From contig OY253675.1 in NCBI GenBank assembly GCA_958009085.1, forward strand, positions 1,178,001 to 1,237,397: a stretch of 59,397 nt of DNA. The letters run 5' to 3'. Within the stretch, counting starts at the first letter, position 1, and each line of letters starts with the position of its first letter. The notes beneath the pieces were generated by a model that saw nothing but the letters and a program-made list of their open reading frames with translations, did no database searches and was not told the DNA's origin. A program made the position numbers and the translations under genes. This DNA comes from Protoeuglena noctilucae. Its lineage: Eukaryota. Positions 2,956 to 19,997 of this stretch are shown here, piece by piece.

Positions 2956-4454
2956 TCACACGTCCTCCTCCGGCATCGCCCGCAGCGACTCTTTGGCCGA
3001 GTCGCTAAGCCCGGGTGCCCCCCCACGCATGCCGTAGAGCTCCAGCGGTGCCTTTGGCTCCCTCCACACCACCGCGATGCGCTCCTCCGGGACCTGCTCG
3101 ACCAGCTCCGCCAGCTCCCGCAGCAGGCTCAGCAGCCCTTTCGTCGGGTCCCTCACGCGCGGCGCCACCTCCTCCTCCAGGCTCCCCGGGGACCTCTGCT
3201 CGACCGACGCGAACACGCCCCGGTCGTGGCGCCCGTGCACAAGCCACTCCGTCCCAGACAGCGCCATCTGCGACCACTTGGACCCCGCGTCCAGGTCTTT
3301 ACGGTACGACCGCGACGCCATCTCCACCGACGCCCACCCCGCCTGCCCCCAGTCCCCCACCACCTCCGCTGCAACCAGGTCCGACACCCCCGCCCCGGCA
3401 GCCTGCTCCGACAGCCCAAGCCCAAACATCGCCGCTGAGAGGTCATCCACGCCCCCCTCGGCCTCGGCCACGCTCTCGCCCGCCACCACGGCGTCGGCAT
3501 CGTAGCGCACCAGCAGCCCCAGCCCACTGCCGTCCGCGGGGCCCAGGCGCCCCCGCACCACGCGCTTGTACCCGGGACGGCCCTGGCCACCCGGCGAAGG
3601 CTGAGTGACGTACTGCTTGAAGGCAGTGCCGTACCCTGGGTGGCCTTCTCCCCAGGAGCGCGGCTCCCGGCGCAGCACCACGAGCGCGCCGCCCACCATG
3701 CCGAGGTCCATGCGCAGGGGCATGTTGTCGTCGTACCAGGGCTCTCCCGCCACGAAGGCCAGCAGCTTGCGGAGGTTGTTGCGGTCAGTCACGGGCGTGG
3801 CGGGGCGCGGCGACGGGGCGGGGCCGAGGTCGCGGTAGACCCGCATCGCCACGACCATCGGGACGAACGGGGCATCTGGCACGCGGCGGGCATTTTCGTC
3901 AATGACATTGCCGCCGCTGTCCAGGTCCAGCTGCGAGATACACAAGGAAGGGCAATAGACATCAGGGCGTGATGTCCCAGCATGCGTGCCTGCCCATCAC
4001 ACGATAGGTGGTCCATGGCAGCGCAATGTTCTCGCACCTGGAAGGGTGTCTCGGGAAGCGGGTCCCTCAGCCGGGGCGGGAGACCCGGCACCACGATCGT
4101 CGGGGACGGCGCATCGCGCCAGGTGTACGTGGCGACGACGCGCTCGCAGTGGAAGCGCACGGGCGGGCCATCTGGATGTTAATAAGAGAAGCCGGATGGG
4201 GTGAGGAAGCGCCTCGCGGGGCAGCGAACAACGAATCTCGTCTTGAAGCACGAACCGCAGTGTTGGCAACCATGGCGCCCCCGTGCCTCACCCGCGGACG
4301 CGTGCTCCTCCGCACTGATCGCCCAGATCGGGCCCTCTTCCATCTCCAGGTCTTCCTTCCACCGATGCGGGTTTGCGAGGATTTCACGATGCGAGCTCCC
4401 ATACGCGCGGCCGCGGCCACGCCGGCTACGGCCATACGAGCCTCTCCCCGACAT
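2956..4454 (-). CDS. RAI1/DXO-like (PD-(D/E)xK-type) domain protein, 3 exons
   Basis: Spliced frame gives ATYTW..PTIVVPGLPP, IDENARRVP, VTDRNNLRKLLAF, GYGTAFK, YKRVV, LLVRYDADA, VEMASRS and WSQMALSG. These resemble a conserved fungal/algal family that I recall as RAI1/DXO-like. Confidence 0.6.
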
Positions 4455-8063: not shown

Positions 8064-8507
8064 GGCCACTGTCGCTCTCGGAAGAGGAAGGAACGATTGC
8101 GCGCGCGCGCAGGGACCTCGCAGAGGACTTCGAGGCCTGGCCGCTTGCGCAAGGTGGAGAGGAGAATCTACGTCAGCTGGGCTCTCCTAGACGCAGTAAA
8201 GAGGCAAGGACTGGCGGCAGGTGGGCGGGGAGGGCTCCCTTCAGGCGTGGGGATTCGCGCCAGAGGGCGCGCCAGTGGAAGGGGGCCAGGAAGCCAATGG
8301 GGCTCTCATCGGTGGCCAATTCCTGCTCGCGTTCCTCTTAGCATCGCTCCGGTGTCCACCACCACGCCCCAACGTCCCTAAATTGGATTGGCAGAGACGA
8401 AACGTGTACTTTGCCAAGCTCTTCATCTGCAGACATCTCCAGCATCGAGCCCACGTCGCGATTGCTTCCATAGCTGCCGAAGACTCGCTTTGGGGGATCC
8501 GCGGGCC

Positions 8508-8921
8508 ATGCAGCCACCAGAGAAGGTGTGTGCGCTCCACGCCAGCGCCTCCCGATCATTTCCGAGCCGGCAGCGAGTCCTCAGGATCGCGCGTCCGCGC
8601 AGGAATCTTTGAAAGCCGCGACGTCCCCCGAAACGAGCGACGAGAGGGCGAACAAGCACTTTGAGTGAGCGAGCCACGAGGCATGAGCGACTCAGGTGCC
8701 ACTGCAGAGCTCTGGTGTGACACCCGGGCCGCCCTCTTCTGTCCCCCTGCAGTGGCGGGCAGGTGTGCTCGGAGCAGCGCACCCGCGCCATGCAGTGCCT
8801 CATGGCTGGGTACGAGGGCGACAAGAGGCGCGAGGCTGCCCGGGACAAGTGCCAGGCGCTGATGCAAGAGTACAAGGACTGCAAGAAACAGCACCGCTTC
8901 GACAAGTGCTCCGTCATGTGA
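8508..8921 (+). CDS. Twin CX9C (CHCH) mitochondrial intermembrane-space protein, COX23/CMC-like, 3 exons
   Basis: MQPPEK|ESLKAATSPETSDERANKHFD|GGQVCSEQRTRAMQCLMAG...KCQALMQEYKDCKK: two C-x9-C motifs with phase-compatible GT-AG introns. Confidence 0.75.
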
Positions 8922-8994: not shown

Positions 8995-12615
<3,621 letters not shown>

Positions 12616-13349
12616 GGTAAGCACGCTTTGTCGATCAAAAGCCGCTGCGGGCCGACTCCGAGGACCGATGCGGCCGGAGACGACGCGAGGGACACCGCAG
12701 TCTTGAATGTATGGCGGCTGACGATGCGGATGGTGGAACAACAAAAGGGAGGGGCAACTTTGCCCGCCAGTGTCAGTTGTTTCGCTCGTGGCGCTTTCAT
12801 CTCATCCCGCTCTCGGGGGCTCGGGCACTCCTGAGTGTCGGCCCGGCGTGCCACTGGCTGGACCGGGTTCCTGGTGCGGCAGCTGGCTCGCCGGGGACTC
12901 CAGGTTGCCTCTCTCCGCAGTTGCTGCCACAGGACCCCCTGGCTGCCTTTACCTTCAAGCCCTCCTTCTTGGGTCGCTTTTGGGGGCCCTCGCTGTGCTC
13001 GGCACCCTCGTGGCGCTCGCCCCGGCACGCTCTGAGGCCCCCGTGCACTCTAGGACTTGGAACGGGTTCCGCCGGACCCGCCGGCCTGGAACCGCTTGAA
13101 AGGGGATCCTAACTGGGGAGCGTGTTCATGGTAACCCCTTCTGGGGACCTGGCGGAACCCGCGTAGAGCACGGGGTTCCCCTGGGGAACTGCAGCGGTGA
13201 CGCCCGCTTGGAGCCCGCCTGGGAGCCGAATTCCGATCTAGCTCCTTCCATTGCAGCCCTTGCTGCAGCCCCAGCCAGCCCCATGTCGTCCGGGAGTGGG
13301 TCCCTGGGGTGCGTACTTGATGGGCGCACTCGATGGGTGCACTCAATGA

Positions 13350-14036
13350 TTGCTGTCAGGCCGGCCTGGCGATCTTCCGCGCCGCTCACTGCGCGTACTC
13401 CGTGATCGCCACTCCCTTCTGTCACTGGGTGTACCCGGCCCTCCATGGTTCCCGCGCCCCGTGGGCGCTAACGATCCAATCGTGTCGAGGAAGAGCCAAT
13501 CCCTGCCGGGCATCTCCGTCGGGGATCGACTGTTCCTCGTGAAGATCGGGGTATCGGCGCCCCCGGGCAAGGGAGTGACGGTGCAGGGGTGCACAGGGAC
13601 GAGGCCTTGCGGGCCTGAGCTCCGGAGGGGGCGGGTGCCCTTGCGCAGCGCAGCAACGCCCCAAGTGAGTAGTGTGGCACGTGCAGCTACGAGCCACTGG
13701 CCGAGCTCGACGTGTTTGGCGGGAAGGGCGTCACCATCCGCGACCTCCTGGTGAGCCAGCGCGTGCTTGGATAGGTGGTCGGCCCGCCGGCCACGGACGC
13801 ACAGCGACGCCCCGGCATGCCCCTGCGTGCAGGACACTGTGAAGGGCCGGGAGCTGCTGGTGGCCATGGTTGGGACATGGATGAGCAAGGAGGGCTTCAT
13901 CGGCTCTGGGCGTTCCCGCTCTCGGTCGGTTTCGGATGGATGGAGCTAGGTCATGGAGGGCGAGGGGGTGGCCATCGATGTTGGGGTGGCTGCGATCGAG
14001 GGTACGGCACATTTGCCGTCGTGCTCGAGGCGGAGG
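13350..14036 (+). CDS. Possible unidentified spliced gene or fragment at the palindrome centre
   Basis: Exon-like blocks flanked by GT/AG: ...DRLFLVKIG, YEPLAELDVFGGKGVTIRDLL, DTVKGRELLVAMVGTWMSKEG. No family recognised; runs toward the gap. Confidence 0.25.
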
Positions 14037-14236
14037 NNNNNNNNNNNNNNNNNNNNNNNNNNNNNNNNNNNNNNNNNNNNNNNNNNNNNNNNNNNNNNNN
14101 NNNNNNNNNNNNNNNNNNNNNNNNNNNNNNNNNNNNNNNNNNNNNNNNNNNNNNNNNNNNNNNNNNNNNNNNNNNNNNNNNNNNNNNNNNNNNNNNNNNN
14201 NNNNNNNNNNNNNNNNNNNNNNNNNNNNNNNNNNNN
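14037..14236. other. Assembly gap (200 N)
   Basis: Run of n. Confidence 1.
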
Positions 14237-17200
14237 CCCGGCCCTTCACAGTGTCCTGCACGCAGGGGCATGCCGGGGCGTCGCTGTGCGTCCGTGGCCG
14301 GCGGGCCGACCACCTATCCAAGCACGCGCTGGCTCACCAGGAGGTCGCGGATGGTGACGCCCTTCCCGCCAAACACGTCGAGCTCGGCCAGTGGCTCGTA
14401 GCTGCACGTGCCACACTACTCACTTGGGGCGTTGCTGCGCTGCGCAAGGGCACCCGCCCCCTCCGGAGCTCAGGCCCGCAAGGCCTCGTCCCTGTGCACC
14501 CCTGCACCGTCACTCCCTTGCCCGGGGGCGCCGATACCCCGATCTTCACGAGGAACAGTCGATCCCCGACGGAGATGCCCGGCAGGGATTGGCTCTTCCT
14601 CGACACGATTGGATCGTTAGCGCCCACGGGGCGCGGGAACCATGGAGGGCCGGGTACACCCAGTGACAGAAGGGAGTGGCGATCACGGAGTACGCGCAGT
14701 GAGCGGCGCGGAAGATCGCCAGGCCGGCCTGACAGCAATCATTGAGTGCACCCATCGAGTGCGCCCATCAAGTACGCACCCCAGGGACCCACTCCCGGAC
14801 GACATGGGGCTGGCTGGGGCTGCAGCAAGGGCTGCAATGGAAGGAGCTAGATCGGAATTCGGCTCCCAGGCGGGCTCCAAGCGGGCGTCACCGCTGCAGT
14901 TCCCCAGGGGAACCCCGTGCTCTACGCGGGTTCCGCCAGGTCCCCAGAAGGGGTTACCATGAACACGCTCCCCAGTTAGGATCCCCTTTCAAGCGGTTCC
15001 AGGCCGGCGGGTCCGGCGGAACCCGTTCCAAGTCCTAGAGTGCACGGGGGCCTCAGAGCGTGCCGGGGCGAGCGCCACGAGGGTGCCGAGCACAGCGAGG
15101 GCCCCCAAAAGCGACCCAAGAAGGAGGGCTTGAAGGTAAAGGCAGCCAGGGGGTCCTGTGGCAGCAACTGCGGAGAGAGGCAACCTGGAGTCCCCGGCGA
15201 GCCAGCTGCCGCACCAGGAACCCGGTCCAGCCAGTGGCACGCCGGGCCGACACTCAGGAGTGCCCGAGCCCCCGAGAGCGGGATGAGATGAAAGCGCCAC
15301 GAGCGAAACAACTGACACTGGCGGGCAAAGTTGCCCCTCCCTTTTGTTGTTCCACCATCCGCATCGTCAGCCGCCATACATTCAAGACTGCGGTGTCCCT
15401 CGCGTCGTCTCCGGCCGCATCGGTCCTCGGAGTCGGCCCGCAGCGGCTTTTGATCGACAAAGCGTGCTTACCATGTCCATCCGGTGCCTGTTGGTGGACA
15501 ACTACGACAGCTACACGTACAATCTGTTCCAGGCGAGACGCAGGCGCGGCGACATCCCCGGCAGCCGGCGCACGCCAGCCACTTGCGCTGCCAGACGTGC
15601 CGTCGTCGCCCCTGCAGCTCCTGTCCGTCGTTGGCGGGGGCCGCGTCGATGTCGTGCGCAACGACGCCGTCTCGTGGGAGGACCTGAGGCCCCGCATCGA
15701 GGCCGGCGACTGGCACTGCGTCGTCCTCTCGCCGGGGCCCGGCACGCCCGACCGGTGCGTGCAGCCGCTCCCCGCGCCCGCCGCAGCGTGGTCCGCCCCC
15801 GCGTGGCCCGCATCCCCGCCCTCCCGGTCTCCCTCCCGCAGCGCGTCGGACGTGGGCGTGTGCGTGGACGTGCTGCGCCACGTGGCGAGCGTGCCCGTCC
15901 TGGGCGTGTGCCTGGGCCACCAGGCTTTGGCCGCGGCGCACGGGGCGCGCGTCGTGCGGGCGCCGGAGCCCGTCCACGGCCGCCTGTCCCTCCTGGAGCA
16001 CGCCGGGCACCCGCTGTTCGCAGGCGTGCCCCCGTCCTCCCCCGTGGTCCGCTACCACTCGCTGGTGGTGGACGCGGCCACGCTGCCGGCGGAGCTCACG
16101 GCCATCGCGCACTGCACCCGCGAGACCTACGCGCCGCGGGCGGACCCCGCCGGTCGCGCGGGGGCGGACCCGGGGGAGCGGCTGGTGATGGCGCTGGCCC
16201 ACCGCACACGGCCGCATGTGGGGGTGCAGTTCCACCCAGAGAGCGTCCTCACGTCGCACGGGTGCGCGGCGCATGCGAACAGCGGCCGGCGCGACTGGGT
16301 CACTGCCTGGCACATGACGGGCGCTCCTCGCATGCTCCCTCGCAGGCCGCGCATGGTGGAGAACTTCCTGCGCATGGCCGCGGCCTTCTGGGGAGGGGCT
16401 ACGGTACCTGCATTGCTGGGCGTCCCCGCTGCTGCTGGGGCGATGGTGCACCGGAGTGCACTGGAGGAGGAGTGGGCACAGGCCGGGTGCAGAGGTGCGT
16501 TCGGTGGTGGGGGAGACCATGCGAGGGCAGTGGCGTGTGCGCGTATGCTCTGTTGATCTCATCTGCAGAATAGGGGCGCTGCGTGCAGATGGCTCTCTGG
16601 GGCTGTGCTACCGCAAGGTGGCGGGCGTGCTGGGCGCGGTGGGTGGCTCCGGCAACCTCTTCTGGAGACTGTTTGGGGGGGAAGAGCCCCGGATGCCGGG
16701 CACCGGGTGCTTCTGGCTCGACAGCGCAGCCGCGGACCGGTGAGGGCGGGGCGGTGGGGGACAGTTAGGCGACGCATGGGATGGGATGGCCTGGCAGCGA
16801 CGCTGCTGAGCGTGCGTTCGCAGGGGTCGGTTCTCTTTCATGGGGGCGCGGGGAGGGCCCCTGTGGCGGCGGTGGGTGTACTGGGTGCCGCGGGGAGAGG
16901 AGCGGGAGGGGCGGCTCGAGGTCACGGACGGGCCAGGGGCGGGTGAGCTGGCTGCTGGGGGCATTGTCAGCTGCCTGGTTGCAACGCGTGCGCGGACACG
17001 TGATGGCATCACCTTCATCGCCCCTCCAGGTGTCAGTGTCGCGGGGGTCCGCTGCTGGGGTCGCTGAAGGCGGCGCTGGGGGAGGCGCGGGTGCGGTGGG
17101 GGCCAGGAGACGCGGCGGCCCTGCCGTTCGACTTCTGGGGGGGCTTCGTGGGGGTACCTGGGGTACGAGATGCACGCCGAGTGCATGGAGGGGGGCGGGC

Positions 17201-17259
17201 CGCAGCCGCGGGACAGGTGAGAGGGTGGGCGGGTGCGCAAGGGGCGGGGGAGGTGTTGT
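14237..17259. repeat. Right arm of ~3-kb inverted duplication
   Basis: Near-identical reverse complement of 10833-13851; the few differences seen are distal, mostly +1 G in homopolymers. Confidence 0.95.
15473..17218 (+). pseudogene. Truncated second copy of ADC synthase 5' half
   Basis: Same ATG and GATase exons as the minus-strand gene; frameshifting G insertions distally; lacks the C-terminal PabB exons. Confidence 0.8.
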
Positions 17260-17817
17260 AATGGGGCGTGTGAGGGACAGTCATGGCGAGGACGCGCGCG
17301 CATCGCGGATTGGCAGCCACCGCTGCGGTGGCACCCCAAGAGCTCAGGAATGATGCGGTTCACGGGCGCACACATCGACGCAGTGGCCGAGGGGATGATT
17401 GAGAAACCGGGGATTCAAGGTTATCCAACAGGACCCCGCAGCCTTGAAGGACAGTAACCGCGCGCTTTCCAGCTAGCGCGTAGTGCTTGCCAAGGCCTGC
17501 GCCACGCAGCATCGCACGCCCGACCGTCATGCGGGAGACTGCGCTTAGGAAGGTGAGAGATGATGGGCTGCTTAGTGCGAGGCACCCCAATGTCGATGTG
17601 GGGCCTGGGAGTGGCCATCGGATGTCGCCACTCCTCAGCGCCCACATCACCACGGGGGCCTTGGCCAGGGCACCTGCCTTATCTAATTTTGCTATGCGGA
17701 GGGTTGGCAGTACCAGACGGCGGGGGCGCCGTGCCGCACACCCTTGTGTGGGGCCTGAGTGCCCTTGTCATTGGCGCACGAGTGCAGCCCCCGCGCGGCG
17801 GTCTTGTTGCAGCGGGC

Positions 17818-17929
17818 TGGCTGGCGTGCGCCGGCTGCCGGGGATGTCGCCGCGCCTGCGTCTCGCCTGGAACAGATTGTACGTGTAGCTGTCGTAGTTG
17901 TCCACCAACAGGCACCGGAGGGACATGGT
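17818..17929 (-). pseudogene. Third 112-bp fragment of ADC synthase exon 1 plus start of intron 1
   Basis: Matches 12507-12618 in the same orientation with one substitution. Confidence 0.9.
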
Positions 17930-18151: not shown

Positions 18152-18223
18152 GATGCCGTGGCGCAGTGGAAGCGCAGTTGCTTTACACGCAAAAGGTCGT
18201 CGGTTCGAACCCGACCGGCGTCA
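18152..18223 (+). tRNA. trnV-UAC: tRNA-Val(UAC)
   Basis: Acceptor GATGCCG/CGGCGTC+A, D arm GCGC/GCGC, anticodon loop TT-TAC-AC, T arm GTCGG-TTCGAAC-CCGAC. Confidence 0.95.
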
Positions 18224-18247
18224 CACGGCCTGTGGAACATACAAGCG

Positions 18248-18356
18248 AACCCTTGGCGGAAGCCGCGCAGGTTCGAATCCTGCCGAACACGGTCTCTCCC
18301 GGATGGATTCTGGGACGACGTGTTCGTCGCCTAGTGGCTATGGCGAGGGTCTTGAA
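18248..18356 (+). tRNA. trnS-UGA: Circularly permuted tRNA-Ser(UGA): 3' half 18248-18291, 28-nt intervening hairpin, 5' half 18320-18356
   Basis: 5' half GTGTTCG-TC-GCC-TAGTGGCTAT-GGC-G-AGGGT-CT-TGA-A (37 nt). 3' half A-ACCCT, long variable arm GGC-GGAA-GCC, GCAGG-TTCGAAT-CCTGC, CGAACAC-G. The acceptor (7 bp) and anticodon (5 bp) stems pair perfectly across the halves; G73 and the long arm fit Ser. Confidence 0.93.
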
Positions 18357-18365
18357 TGTCGGGCC

Positions 18366-18385
18366 TTTTTGCTTTTTTTGTTTTT
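18366..18385 (+). terminator. RNA polymerase III T-run terminator
   Basis: T5-GC-T7-G-T5 just after the permuted tRNA trailer, in otherwise GC-rich DNA. Confidence 0.85.
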
Positions 18386-18391
18386 CCCGCG

Positions 18392-18487
18392 CCCCGGGGT
18401 GTCAGCTGCCCCGGGGGACGGCACTTCTGCCGCAAGGCGTGGCTCTGAGAGTCATAGCACCCCTCGACTGTTGAATCGCTCATCATC
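18392..18487 (+). mobile_element. Retroposon-like repeat, copy 1 (5'-truncated)
   Basis: Identical to the 3' part of copies 2 and 3; ends in TCATCATC; no clear TSD. Confidence 0.65.
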
Positions 18488-18610
18488 TCCGGGGGACGGC
18501 GCCCCTGTCGCGACCACGCCATGGACCCGCTCGGTGCTGCGGCACCCGGCGCTGGTGCCGCTGTGGACCGAGGCGCAGAGGCTCGCGGCGGGCCTCGACA
18601 TCACTTGGGA

Positions 18611-18722
18611 CTGCAACGATGGAAACCCCGGGGTGTCAGCTGCCCCGGGGGACGGCACTTCTGCCGCAAGGCGTGGCTCTGAGAGTCATAGCACCCCTCG
18701 ACTGTTGAATCGCTCATCATCA
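18611..18722 (+). mobile_element. Retroposon-like repeat, copy 2, with 16-bp target-site duplication
   Basis: Flanked by TCGACATCACTTGGGA at 18595-18610 and 18723-18738; (TCA)n tail. Confidence 0.8.
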
Positions 18723-18764
18723 TCGACATCACTTGGGAGCACGTGCCACGGGAGCAGAACGATA

Positions 18765-18900
18765 CTCCAAGGTCGTCAGCGTGATGGGCCAAGGTCGTCA
18801 GCGTGACAGGCCAAGGTCATCTGGGCGTGTGGGGGCGAGGAGATGAGGGACGGGCCAAGGCCGACGGACGCGGGAGAGGACGGGCCAAGGGCCAAGGTTG
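18765..18900 (+). repeat. Short degenerate minisatellite with a recurring (GG)CCAAGG core
   Basis: CCAAGGTCGTCAGCGTGA twice plus further GGCCAAGG units. Confidence 0.7.
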
Positions 18901-18942
18901 ACGTGCGGGAGCGAGGAGCGGGGTCGCGTCGTGGGTCTCTGG

Positions 18943-19543
18943 GCACACGGCCGAGTGGGTCGTGCCGGCGCACGCACCCGGAGCGGGGCGGTCTGGGGCG
19001 GTCCATATGAGAGGCAGCCGGCCCTCAGGGGCGCCGCGTGGGCGAGCGGGGCGCCCAGGGGCAACGCTGCGCCCCCCAAGGAACGCCGTCTGCGTTCGGA
19101 CCGTCCCCACCGCCCTCGCGTCCGGGCCAGCGTCGCCGGGTGGGCGAGCCAGCCGGGCCGCCTGAGGAGGATGGGAGGAGGGTAGGGAGCGGGGGATGTC
19201 ATGATTGGCCGCACATAAGCTACACAGATCGTCATTAGCCTCGGCCTCACCTTTTGTAATAGACGCCCGGGGGTCTCCACGGAGGGCCCCCGCGGCTGCA
19301 TCGTCCCACTCTGGGACGGCGATTCTGCCTTCGGGCGCAGCGAGGGGGCTAGGGGTGCAAGAATCCGGGGTGGGCGACCCCTTTGCCTTCGGGTGGGGCA
19401 ACCTAGCGGGGGCGGGTCTTAGTGCCGATGCACTGCAACGATGGAAACCCCGGGGTGTCAGCTGCCCCGGGGGACGGCACTTCTGCCGCAAGGCGTGGCT
19501 CTGAGAGTCATAGCACCCCTCGACTGTTGAATCGCTCATCATC
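18943..19543 (+). mobile_element. Retroposon-like repeat, copy 3, putative longer (~600 bp) non-coding element
   Basis: The 3' 111 bp (19433-19543) are identical to copy 2; candidate 11-bp TSD TGGGTCTCTGG at 18932-18942 and 19544-19554. Confidence 0.6.
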
Positions 19544-19997
19544 TGGGTCTCTGGCGAAAAACGGCCCCCGCGCGCCGTCGCGCCTGCCGAGGCACGCATC
19601 CTGCTTAGCAAGCGCACACGCGCCGGATGCGGCCTCAATGCCTACACCGTACAGCCGCACAGCTGTATCGCCACTCAAGTGTCGTGCGGCCGGCCCTTTC
19701 GGACCCAAAACGACTCGGCGCGGACGCAGGGAAGGCCTTGGGCAACGTGCTGCGGTAGCCCTGCGTTTTCGTTCGCGCAATCGTGACTGTTGGCTCAGGG
19801 TTGCACGCACTTGTTCTGACAGGATGCGCTGCGCCGGGTCCGAGACCGCGAAAGGCGCCCTGGCAGCGCTGGGGCCCGCCAGTCCTGCCAGTGCACCTGC
19901 GTCGTGCCCATGTCGGAATGGCCTAAAGCTGGCGCGCATCCGGGCCCCACGGTCGGAGCCCAGGCAGCAATGCCGCGATTCACAGCGGGTGCTACGC

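Follow-up and report, generated by a model that had tools for sequence, protein, structure and literature searches.

Stacked copies of an L1-like retrotransposon beside tRNA genes and the placement of its family at Pol III genes

The stack in the window

Just downstream of a tRNA unit in the window, the 59,397-bp stretch of DNA analysed here, three copies of one short repeat lie on the same strand (18392-18487, 18611-18722 and 19433-19543). They share 96 identical base pairs, end in TCATCATC and have no further copy in the window, where no other 14-mer of the segment occurs on either strand. How did such a stack come to lie beside tRNA genes? The earlier note proposed a non-autonomous family, spread by target-primed retroposition, with a preference for tRNA flanks. 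We put the probability at roughly four in five that the stack consists of successive insertions of an L1-like element, here called E1, which integrates position-specifically beside Pol III genes.

Two tRNA genes precede the stack on the plus strand. The first, tRNA-Val(TAC) (18152-18224), was called by ARAGORN and scored 63.3 bits with Rfam RF00005. It was ruled out as the gene just before copy 1, because a circularly permuted tRNA-Ser(TGA) gene (18248-18356) lies between and is the one nearest to the stack. This gene is split at the anticodon loop, with the 3' half coming first and the 5' half starting at about 18320; ARAGORN gives a full cloverleaf only if the stretch is circularised and none for the linear form. 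Prasinophyte green algae are known to have permuted tRNA genes (PMC3978253, in the passages on them). The two genes share a terminator, for which the T-runs at 18366-18385 (plus strand), resembling Pol III terminators, are the candidate. Copy 1 begins 7 bases past the last T (18385), as had been stated before.

From 18392 to 19543 the DNA is entirely a mosaic of E1 pieces and one scrap of a second element, F, all on the plus strand; the element origin of everything between the copies had been overlooked. Copy 1 (18392-18487) is the last 96 bp of E1 (reference 8754-8849, 100% identity). It is followed by a 29-bp match to F (18484-18512, 93%), the sole F piece in the window; in contigs from three sequencing runs, loose ends pass into F sequence at 18512. 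Next comes a fragment of the E1 ORF (18514-18610, reference 4109-4213), the left part of the target of copy 2. Copy 2 itself (18611-18722, the last 112 bp of E1, 100%) sits inside this older fragment and is flanked by the exact 16-bp duplication recognised previously (18595-18610 and 18723-18738). Beginning with the right copy of this duplication, the remainder of the ORF fragment (reference 4198-4236) extends from 18723 to 18761. Copy 3 (18761-19543) is the last 783 bp of E1 (reference 8067-8849, 97%), the shared repeat being its final part (19433-19543), and its 5' junction is composite, made up of the F scrap and the ORF fragment.

For copy 3 an element of ~600 bp bounded by an 11-bp duplication had been suspected. 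The match to E1 reaches 18761, and the upstream 11-mer (18932-18942) is internal to the element (position 8238 of the full-length reference). Thus the 11-mer does not delimit a ~600-bp element, and the 11 bases at 19544-19554, on the plus strand, look like a chance match or a short template-jump scrap instead of an ordinary TSD. By the test used, neither copy 1 nor copy 3 has a TSD. Two other distal tails (L006 and L018) are likewise followed by bases of E1's own 3' UTR, 15 and 19 of them as compared with 11 in the window, perhaps false starts of reverse transcription before the jump to the RNA end.

The empty site that the earlier note hoped for did not turn up: in 4 of 24 sequencing runs no empty allele of the locus was found. 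Runs X1-X3 share the same outer junctions, and X13, which contains E1 pieces and lacks the flanks of the locus, is uninformative on this point. A joined form of copy 2, in which 128 letters are skipped and 16 fit both sides, was present in contigs of all four runs examined. Since this joined form is the intact E1 ORF, it proves insertion into an element fragment and is not an empty allele of the locus.

An Rfam scan of the repeat gave no known RNA family or ribozyme, and its fold was not better than that of shuffled sequences (z -1.4). Just upstream of the tRNA unit, at 10830-17262 and 17818-17929, lies a nested inverted duplication with 2.7-kb arms that are 100% identical; a 112-bp exon-like piece occurs three times in this region, and we take it to read as a candidate glutamine amidotransferase motif.

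E1 and its companion elements

The genome comprises 26.3 Mb in 27 contigs with TTAGGG telomeres. Its rbcL gene (on C27) scores best against green-type Rubisco structures, which presumably belong to green algae, and the window stretch is present in marine metagenomes; from this, and from the match of its U3 gene to Plant_U3 in Rfam, we infer that the host is a marine green alga. From tRNA density alone, C26 was taken as mitochondrial.

The 112-bp segment is not confined to the window. It has at least 42 matches in the genome (40 of 47 candidates scored), and exact 17-mer tips occur 37 times genome-wide, compared with 0 for the reversed control. Longer copies can be aligned along as much as 8.9 kb, at 92-99.7% identity. 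In the reference copy (L032:514-9365) a single ORF of 1902 aa is followed by a 3' UTR of ~3 kb and a (CAT)n tail; two copies have ~145 bp of additional 5' end in common, so that E1 is about 9.0 kb long. The ORF starts with a Gly/Pro/Arg-rich stretch of ~220 aa, continues with an AP endonuclease (PF03372, 223-452) and a reverse transcriptase (PF00078, 754-989), and also encodes an RNase H of the RVT_3 type (Pfam) as well as, at the C-terminus, a Cys/His motif that was seen in the translation. A separate ORF1 was not found in the full-length copies, which have only ~410 bp before the first in-frame ATG; possibly it is spliced or fused. Human LINE-1 ORF2p is the best solved relative (E 1.5e-28 vs 1e-9 for R2), and since the RT tree held almost no named references, it is by score that E1 stands nearer to human L1 ORF2p than to R2. 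Judged by domains and scores, E1 classifies as an L1-like non-LTR retrotransposon. A single-sequence fold of its C-terminal 662 aa was unusable (pLDDT 41).

The frames covering the RT are long in four copies (1902, 1888, 1817 and 1620 aa), which suggests a young family that can probably still transpose. The supposed non-autonomous family has therefore given way to an autonomous one: the three window copies are truncated copies of E1, which has intact full-length members elsewhere and is the RT-encoding partner with a common 3' end for which the earlier note advised a search. The window copies are thus not SINEs, as the full-length members code (1902 and 1888 aa). In RNA runs, 0.3-0.5 of the window's words are present. 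The full-length copies on C15 and C19 are 99.7% identical, and the 5' junction of the C15 copy (L054, G000:C15:694.1k) has short pieces resembling the flanks of the C19 copy.

Target-primed retroposition, as already proposed, is supported by the 5' truncation of E1 and F copies, their simple-repeat tails and their variable TSDs of 9-16 bp. TSDs of at least 9 bp were tabulated at 24 of 59 E1/F 3' ends, compared with 40 of 3328 mismatched control pairs (1.2%); at the other 35 of 59 the test used found none. Read by eye, the TSDs show no common motif and are mostly G+C-rich.

Protein searches with E1 gave no close relative beyond near-identical copies and no TRE sequence; outside its own lineage the best relatives reach at most about 40% identity over parts of the RT. 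A metagenome scan with an RT alignment returned no loci. With a single RT it returned 35, all of them distant (23-36% over longer matches); a tRNA was found at 0 of the 35, many of which are too short to tell.

Element F, 787 bp long and non-coding, has the same tail as E1 and is 80-83% like it in two stretches, from which we infer that E1 mobilises it; a tRNA head was not called in F. E2 is a LINE of ~5.8 kb with APE and RT, the latter 45-48% identical to that of E1, and no profile match to RNase H was found in it. E1 and E2 are sisters (SH-aLRT 99) in a quick tree of 60 of 165 proteins in which the composition of E2 is atypical. The sense-strand 3' ends of E2 are of two kinds, T-run and G-run (L140:6290-6330; L075:2600-2760), which is unusual for LINEs. 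Before the tips on C4 and C10 lies a 400-bp stretch that terminates in a T-run; once considered as an unknown Pol III RNA, it turned out to be such an E2 3' end. The long frame of E2 has no ATG upstream of the endonuclease and is preceded by TTAG, which could be a splice acceptor. No targeting or tethering domain was identified in the E1 and E2 proteins. E3, finally, is a distant LINE (RT identity 30-35%) with a poly(A) end.

Placement of the elements at Pol III genes

Elements and tRNA genes were mapped on fetched loci stitched into 50 segments (474 kb), and the placement data describe copies that are fixed in a single assembly; two uncertain ARAGORN calls (C12:378368 and C21:350381; 95-105 nt) were left out of the tables. 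The 47 E1 tips form 31 stacks, and in 24 of these the start is no more than 250 bp away from a Pol III-type sequence. The number rises to 25 with an Rfam tRNA (35.5 bits, cut-off 29) 54 bp from the stack at C20:489k. By chance about 0.1 stacks would be expected (0.04-0.09 for 60-150 genes), the target zone being 0.1-0.3% of the genome. The preference for tRNA flanks is thus supported far more strongly than from the window alone. The C20 stack belongs to an older E1 subfamily (86-92%; L201:2751-5001, L212:1-665; G000:C20:489-491.7k), and as this subfamily, too, lies behind a tRNA-like gene, the habit predates the current burst.

The 25 neighbours are 22 tRNA genes (two of them permuted), a U3 gene, a 5S-like sequence (32.9 bits, under the Rfam cut-off of 38) and a tRNA-Met pseudogene in a duplicated block. 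Plant U3 is transcribed by Pol III. The U3 neighbour matches Rfam Plant_U3 and has a weak TATA; type-3 promoters can serve Pol II or Pol III, and TATA-less ones serve Pol II in green algae (PMC8287931, section on these promoters), so that by these rules its polymerase could be either. Many isotypes are represented among the tRNA genes that E1 copies adjoin, at distances of 28-250 bp and with the 5' end turned towards the gene; the full-length copy on C6 lies 28 bp past tRNA-Leu.

Because many tRNA genes had been found via the elements, occupancy was taken from an element-blind Rfam search (63 of 452 candidates scored). Among the 17 nuclear tRNA loci found in this way, 16 have E1, F or E2 within 250 bp, at the C11 locus as a weak piece (60 bp, 75% match), and the sole empty one is the tRNA-Ser/5S array on C24. 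In the 33 gene clusters an element was present within 450 bp on 47 of 66 sides, and the piece nearest to the gene was directed away from it in all 47 cases; this count was 52 before five 'E2' matches on C24 were dropped as bare T-runs. Where genes are unpaired (23 loci), the piece next to the gene on the downstream side is E1/F in 20 cases and E2 in none, with no piece at 3, and on the upstream side it is E2 in 10 cases and E1/F in none, with no piece at 13 (Fisher p 3.3e-8). Without four loci that have an opposite-strand tRNA remnant, the table reads 17/0/0/7 (p 2.9e-6). Measured to the BLAST edge at unpaired loci, E1/F lie 34-292 bp downstream; E2 lies 137-215 bp upstream. Hence E1 and its partner F take the downstream side of the genes and the sister element E2 the upstream side.

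The three longest downstream distances printed for single tRNA genes are 122, 186 and 195 bp, and at each of these sites a second same-strand T-arm/B-box remnant lies between gene and element. The single U6 gene, found by a search blind to elements, lies 292 bp before an F-like/E1 cluster, and a tRNA remnant is present there too. Another permuted gene, tRNA-Ser(AGA) (L082:4424-4512, G000:C3:13.4k), again split at the anticodon loop, lies 98 bp before a further stack. Both genes had been predicted at formerly unexplained stacks and were then found.

Convergent pairs of Pol III genes 40-190 bp apart occur on C4, C5, C6, C7, C8, C10, C13, C19, C20 and C24; they make up 10 of the 33 clusters, to which the tRNA-Ser/5S units on C24 are to be added. 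In these ten pairs both families occupy the outer sides (E1/F 10, E2 7), and the mapping placed no element piece between the two genes. Since E1/F come first on 10 upstream-facing sides here, the rule 'downstream only' holds only if the distance is counted from the distal gene. On the simplest reading E1 would do so, and insertions within the single-copy proximal gene would be lost. Two loci have a Pro(CGG)/Arg(TCG) pair, C18:898k and C22:426k, and the decayed partner differs between them.

Judged by eye, with identity to one reference as a proxy for age, nine stacks have their most diverged piece at the greatest distance from the gene; the gradient is opposite at two, U6 and C18:898k.

Six of the 31 E1 stacks (C5:249k, C8:171k, C19:121k, C20:818k, C21:354k and C23:208k) and three E2 stacks (C6:46k, C12:370k and C19:118k) have no Pol III gene that we found. 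No tRNA was present in six stretches chosen by a search for T-loop patterns. Elements are lacking at both SRP RNA genes and at the C24 array of six tRNA-Ser/5S units. For E3, which served as the control, four of four ten-kb loci held no tRNA or Rfam RNA.

Targeting, its alternatives and known systems

Following established LINE biology, the E1 protein would bind the 3' end of its own RNA, the endonuclease would nick the target, and the RT would begin copying at the tail and proceed towards the 5' end, with frequent premature stops or template jumps. We consider it fairly probable, by analogy with known systems, that this ribonucleoprotein is tethered to the Pol III apparatus. Tethering is suggested by the strict orientation even of 30-bp scraps, by a distance window without a target sequence and by sister elements on opposite sides. 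If TRE5-A of Dictyostelium is a guide, the tether of E1 would be on the B-box/terminator side and that of E2 on the TFIIIB side, and it would determine how far away and on which strand insertion occurs, with no need for a DNA consensus. Later copies would then hit the same zone, before or inside older ones, and push these outward. In the stack analysed here, copy 3 with its composite 5' end would have come first, and copies 1 and 2 later.

The main rival to a tether is a preference for open or R-loop DNA at Pol III genes: the endonuclease itself would favour nucleosome-free, T-rich or R-loop-prone DNA, or a weak motif in the manner of Tx1-like specificity. The position of copy 1 immediately behind the terminator and of the C6 copy so close to tRNA-Leu would fit, as would the breadth of the windows (28-250 bp), the RNase H of E1 and the failure to find an ORF1 or tethering domain. 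We nevertheless regard it as unlikely. The TSDs, as far as can be seen by eye, lack a motif, and most of them are rich in G+C; Pol II promoters, of which there are thousands, are presumably open as well, yet just 6 stacks are off target; and two sister proteins pick opposite sides of the same genes.

Another possibility is that the elements insert into their own copies, as Zepp of Chlorella does, so that stacks grow from a few chance founders. Such self-targeting would explain why 26 of 59 E1/F tails directly precede at least 11 bases of element sequence, compared with 40 of 617 control positions, why copy 2 lies within an E1 fragment and why the off-target stacks at C8:171k and C21:354k hold several pieces. 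However, it cannot seed 33 different Pol III loci, and the nested insertions cluster, by eye, at the gene-proximal end, as a fixed window predicts. Self-targeting is thus very improbable as the sole cause; it may add to targeting and does not replace it.

Somewhat less probable still is random insertion followed by purifying selection, with only the copies beside tRNA genes surviving in a gene-dense genome. The data are fixed copies from one assembly, and three of the four simple stacks among the six elsewhere have clean TSDs of 9-14 bp, which means that E1 is able to insert away from tRNA genes. Yet the target zone is merely 0.1-0.3% of the genome, E3 persists away from tRNA genes in four of four places, and dead scraps of 30-100 bp keep their orientation (47/47) and their family-specific side, which survival by itself does not predict. 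Local or segmental duplication of a tRNA-plus-repeat unit, seen at a few loci (the C10 inverted block; the reciprocal remnants of C18 Pro and C22 Arg), is refuted for most by unrelated flanks and, with more than 25 isotypes on 19 contigs and individual truncation points and TSDs, has practically no chance of accounting for the whole.

Position-specific integration of E1 and E2 can be compared with several known systems. TRE3 of Dictyostelium, a member of the L1 clade, inserts 40-150 bp downstream from tRNA genes, sharing their orientation (PMC5911963, section on TREs); a table in PMC5006619 gives 14-450 bp. Like TRE3, E1 is a non-LTR element with APE and RT in the same orientation as the gene, 28-195 bp downstream at single tRNA genes, and the external B box of TRE3 has a counterpart in the longer E1 distances, where a second B-box-like unit lies downstream. 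In contrast to TRE3, E1 has a green-algal host, an RNase H, a ~3-kb 3' UTR and one ORF where TREs have two, no separate ORF1 having been found; the tails are (CAT)n in E1/F and a T- or G-run in E2, as against oligo(A) in TREs. The likeness to TREs is one of placement. Single-copy tRNA genes are nearly saturated here (16/17), compared with 61% in D. discoideum. TRE5-A inserts about 50 bp upstream in the opposite orientation, its ORF1 binds TFIIIB, and an intact B box is needed (PMC5911963 and PMC5006619, passages on TRE5-A). E2 is likewise found upstream in the opposite orientation, and TRE5 and TRE3 split the gene sides as E2 and E1 do, but E2 keeps a greater distance (137-215 bp) and no ORF1 was found in it.

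NLTR-A and NLTR-B of D. purpureum and P. pallidum insert 2-6 and 39-64 bp upstream (PMC5911963, as summarised there). Like E1 they are tRNA-targeted non-LTR elements with an RNase H, whereas E1 inserts downstream. L1s with an archaeal-type RNase H are described from land plants (Ta11) and oomycetes in PMC5348765, the main text of which has 0 occurrences of 'tRNA' and mentions no tRNA targeting. Ta11-type L1s resemble E1 in combining an L1-like APE-RT with an RNase H, that of E1 matching RVT_3. Dewa, Keno and Mutsu (Tx1-type) and Dada transposons target tRNA, snRNA and 5S loci, and the respective part of PMC3706591 keeps sequence-specific and position-specific targeting apart. Tx1-type elements and Dada cleave a constant sequence within multicopy genes or spacers, whereas E1 and E2 insert at variable distances from single-copy genes with unrelated TSDs; for E1, TSDs and flanks at 28-250 bp are unrelated by eye, i.e. 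a fixed target sequence is lacking. Yeast Ty1 and Ty3 are position-specific near Pol III genes like E1, but they are LTR elements with an integrase and insert upstream only (PMC5911963, part on yeast).

The main texts of PMC5911963 and PMC5006619 ascribe insertion at Pol III flanks to yeasts and dictyostelids only and do not contain the word 'alga'; the former states downstream insertion for dictyostelids only, and the latter calls tRNA targeting by TREs unique to dictyostelids. The available parts of a 2026 review on tRNA genes in photosynthetic organisms (PMC13578239) name no targeting element. In the literature searched, with most subscription journals, Repbase and supplements outside its scope, no algal LINE targeting tRNA genes was found; the genome paper might mention one. 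The split of gene sides between sister LINEs is well supported and represents a known kind, that of TRE3 and TRE5, which is new in the green-algal lineage. Our most far-reaching suggestion, tentative and slightly short of even odds, is that the complete TRE3/TRE5 arrangement evolved a second time, independently, in the alga. A pair of sister LINEs would attach to the Pol III machinery, one from each side, with targeting residing in a single APE-RT protein instead of an ORF1, with several promoter types as targets (tRNA, permuted tRNA, U3, U6 and 5S) and with nearly every single-copy tRNA locus occupied.

A third case, from the plant lineage, is a test of the view that compact genomes have repeatedly pushed mobile elements towards the flanks of tRNA genes. 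Having no separate ORF1, the sister pair on opposite sides offers a natural experiment by which the targeting determinant, still sought in TRE3, could be located, and a single-protein LINE that avoids genes is a candidate tool for safe-site gene insertion in algae.

Two further observations concern the surroundings of the elements. An A+T-rich, gene-dense, virus-like stretch was noticed at L084:200-3350 (G000:C19:118.2-121.3k), and a similar one in L081 (C8:170.7k); the off-target E2 at C19:118k, the full-length E1 at C19:121k and the E1 at C8:171k adjoin or interrupt it. One of its ORFs, without a Pfam match, may resemble a packaging ATPase. Contig ends are at most 2 kb away from at least seven tRNA loci (C2:431, C7:454, C11:881, C17:940099, C18:898788, C20:885717 and C21:718005), and telomere repeats adjoin the one on C2.
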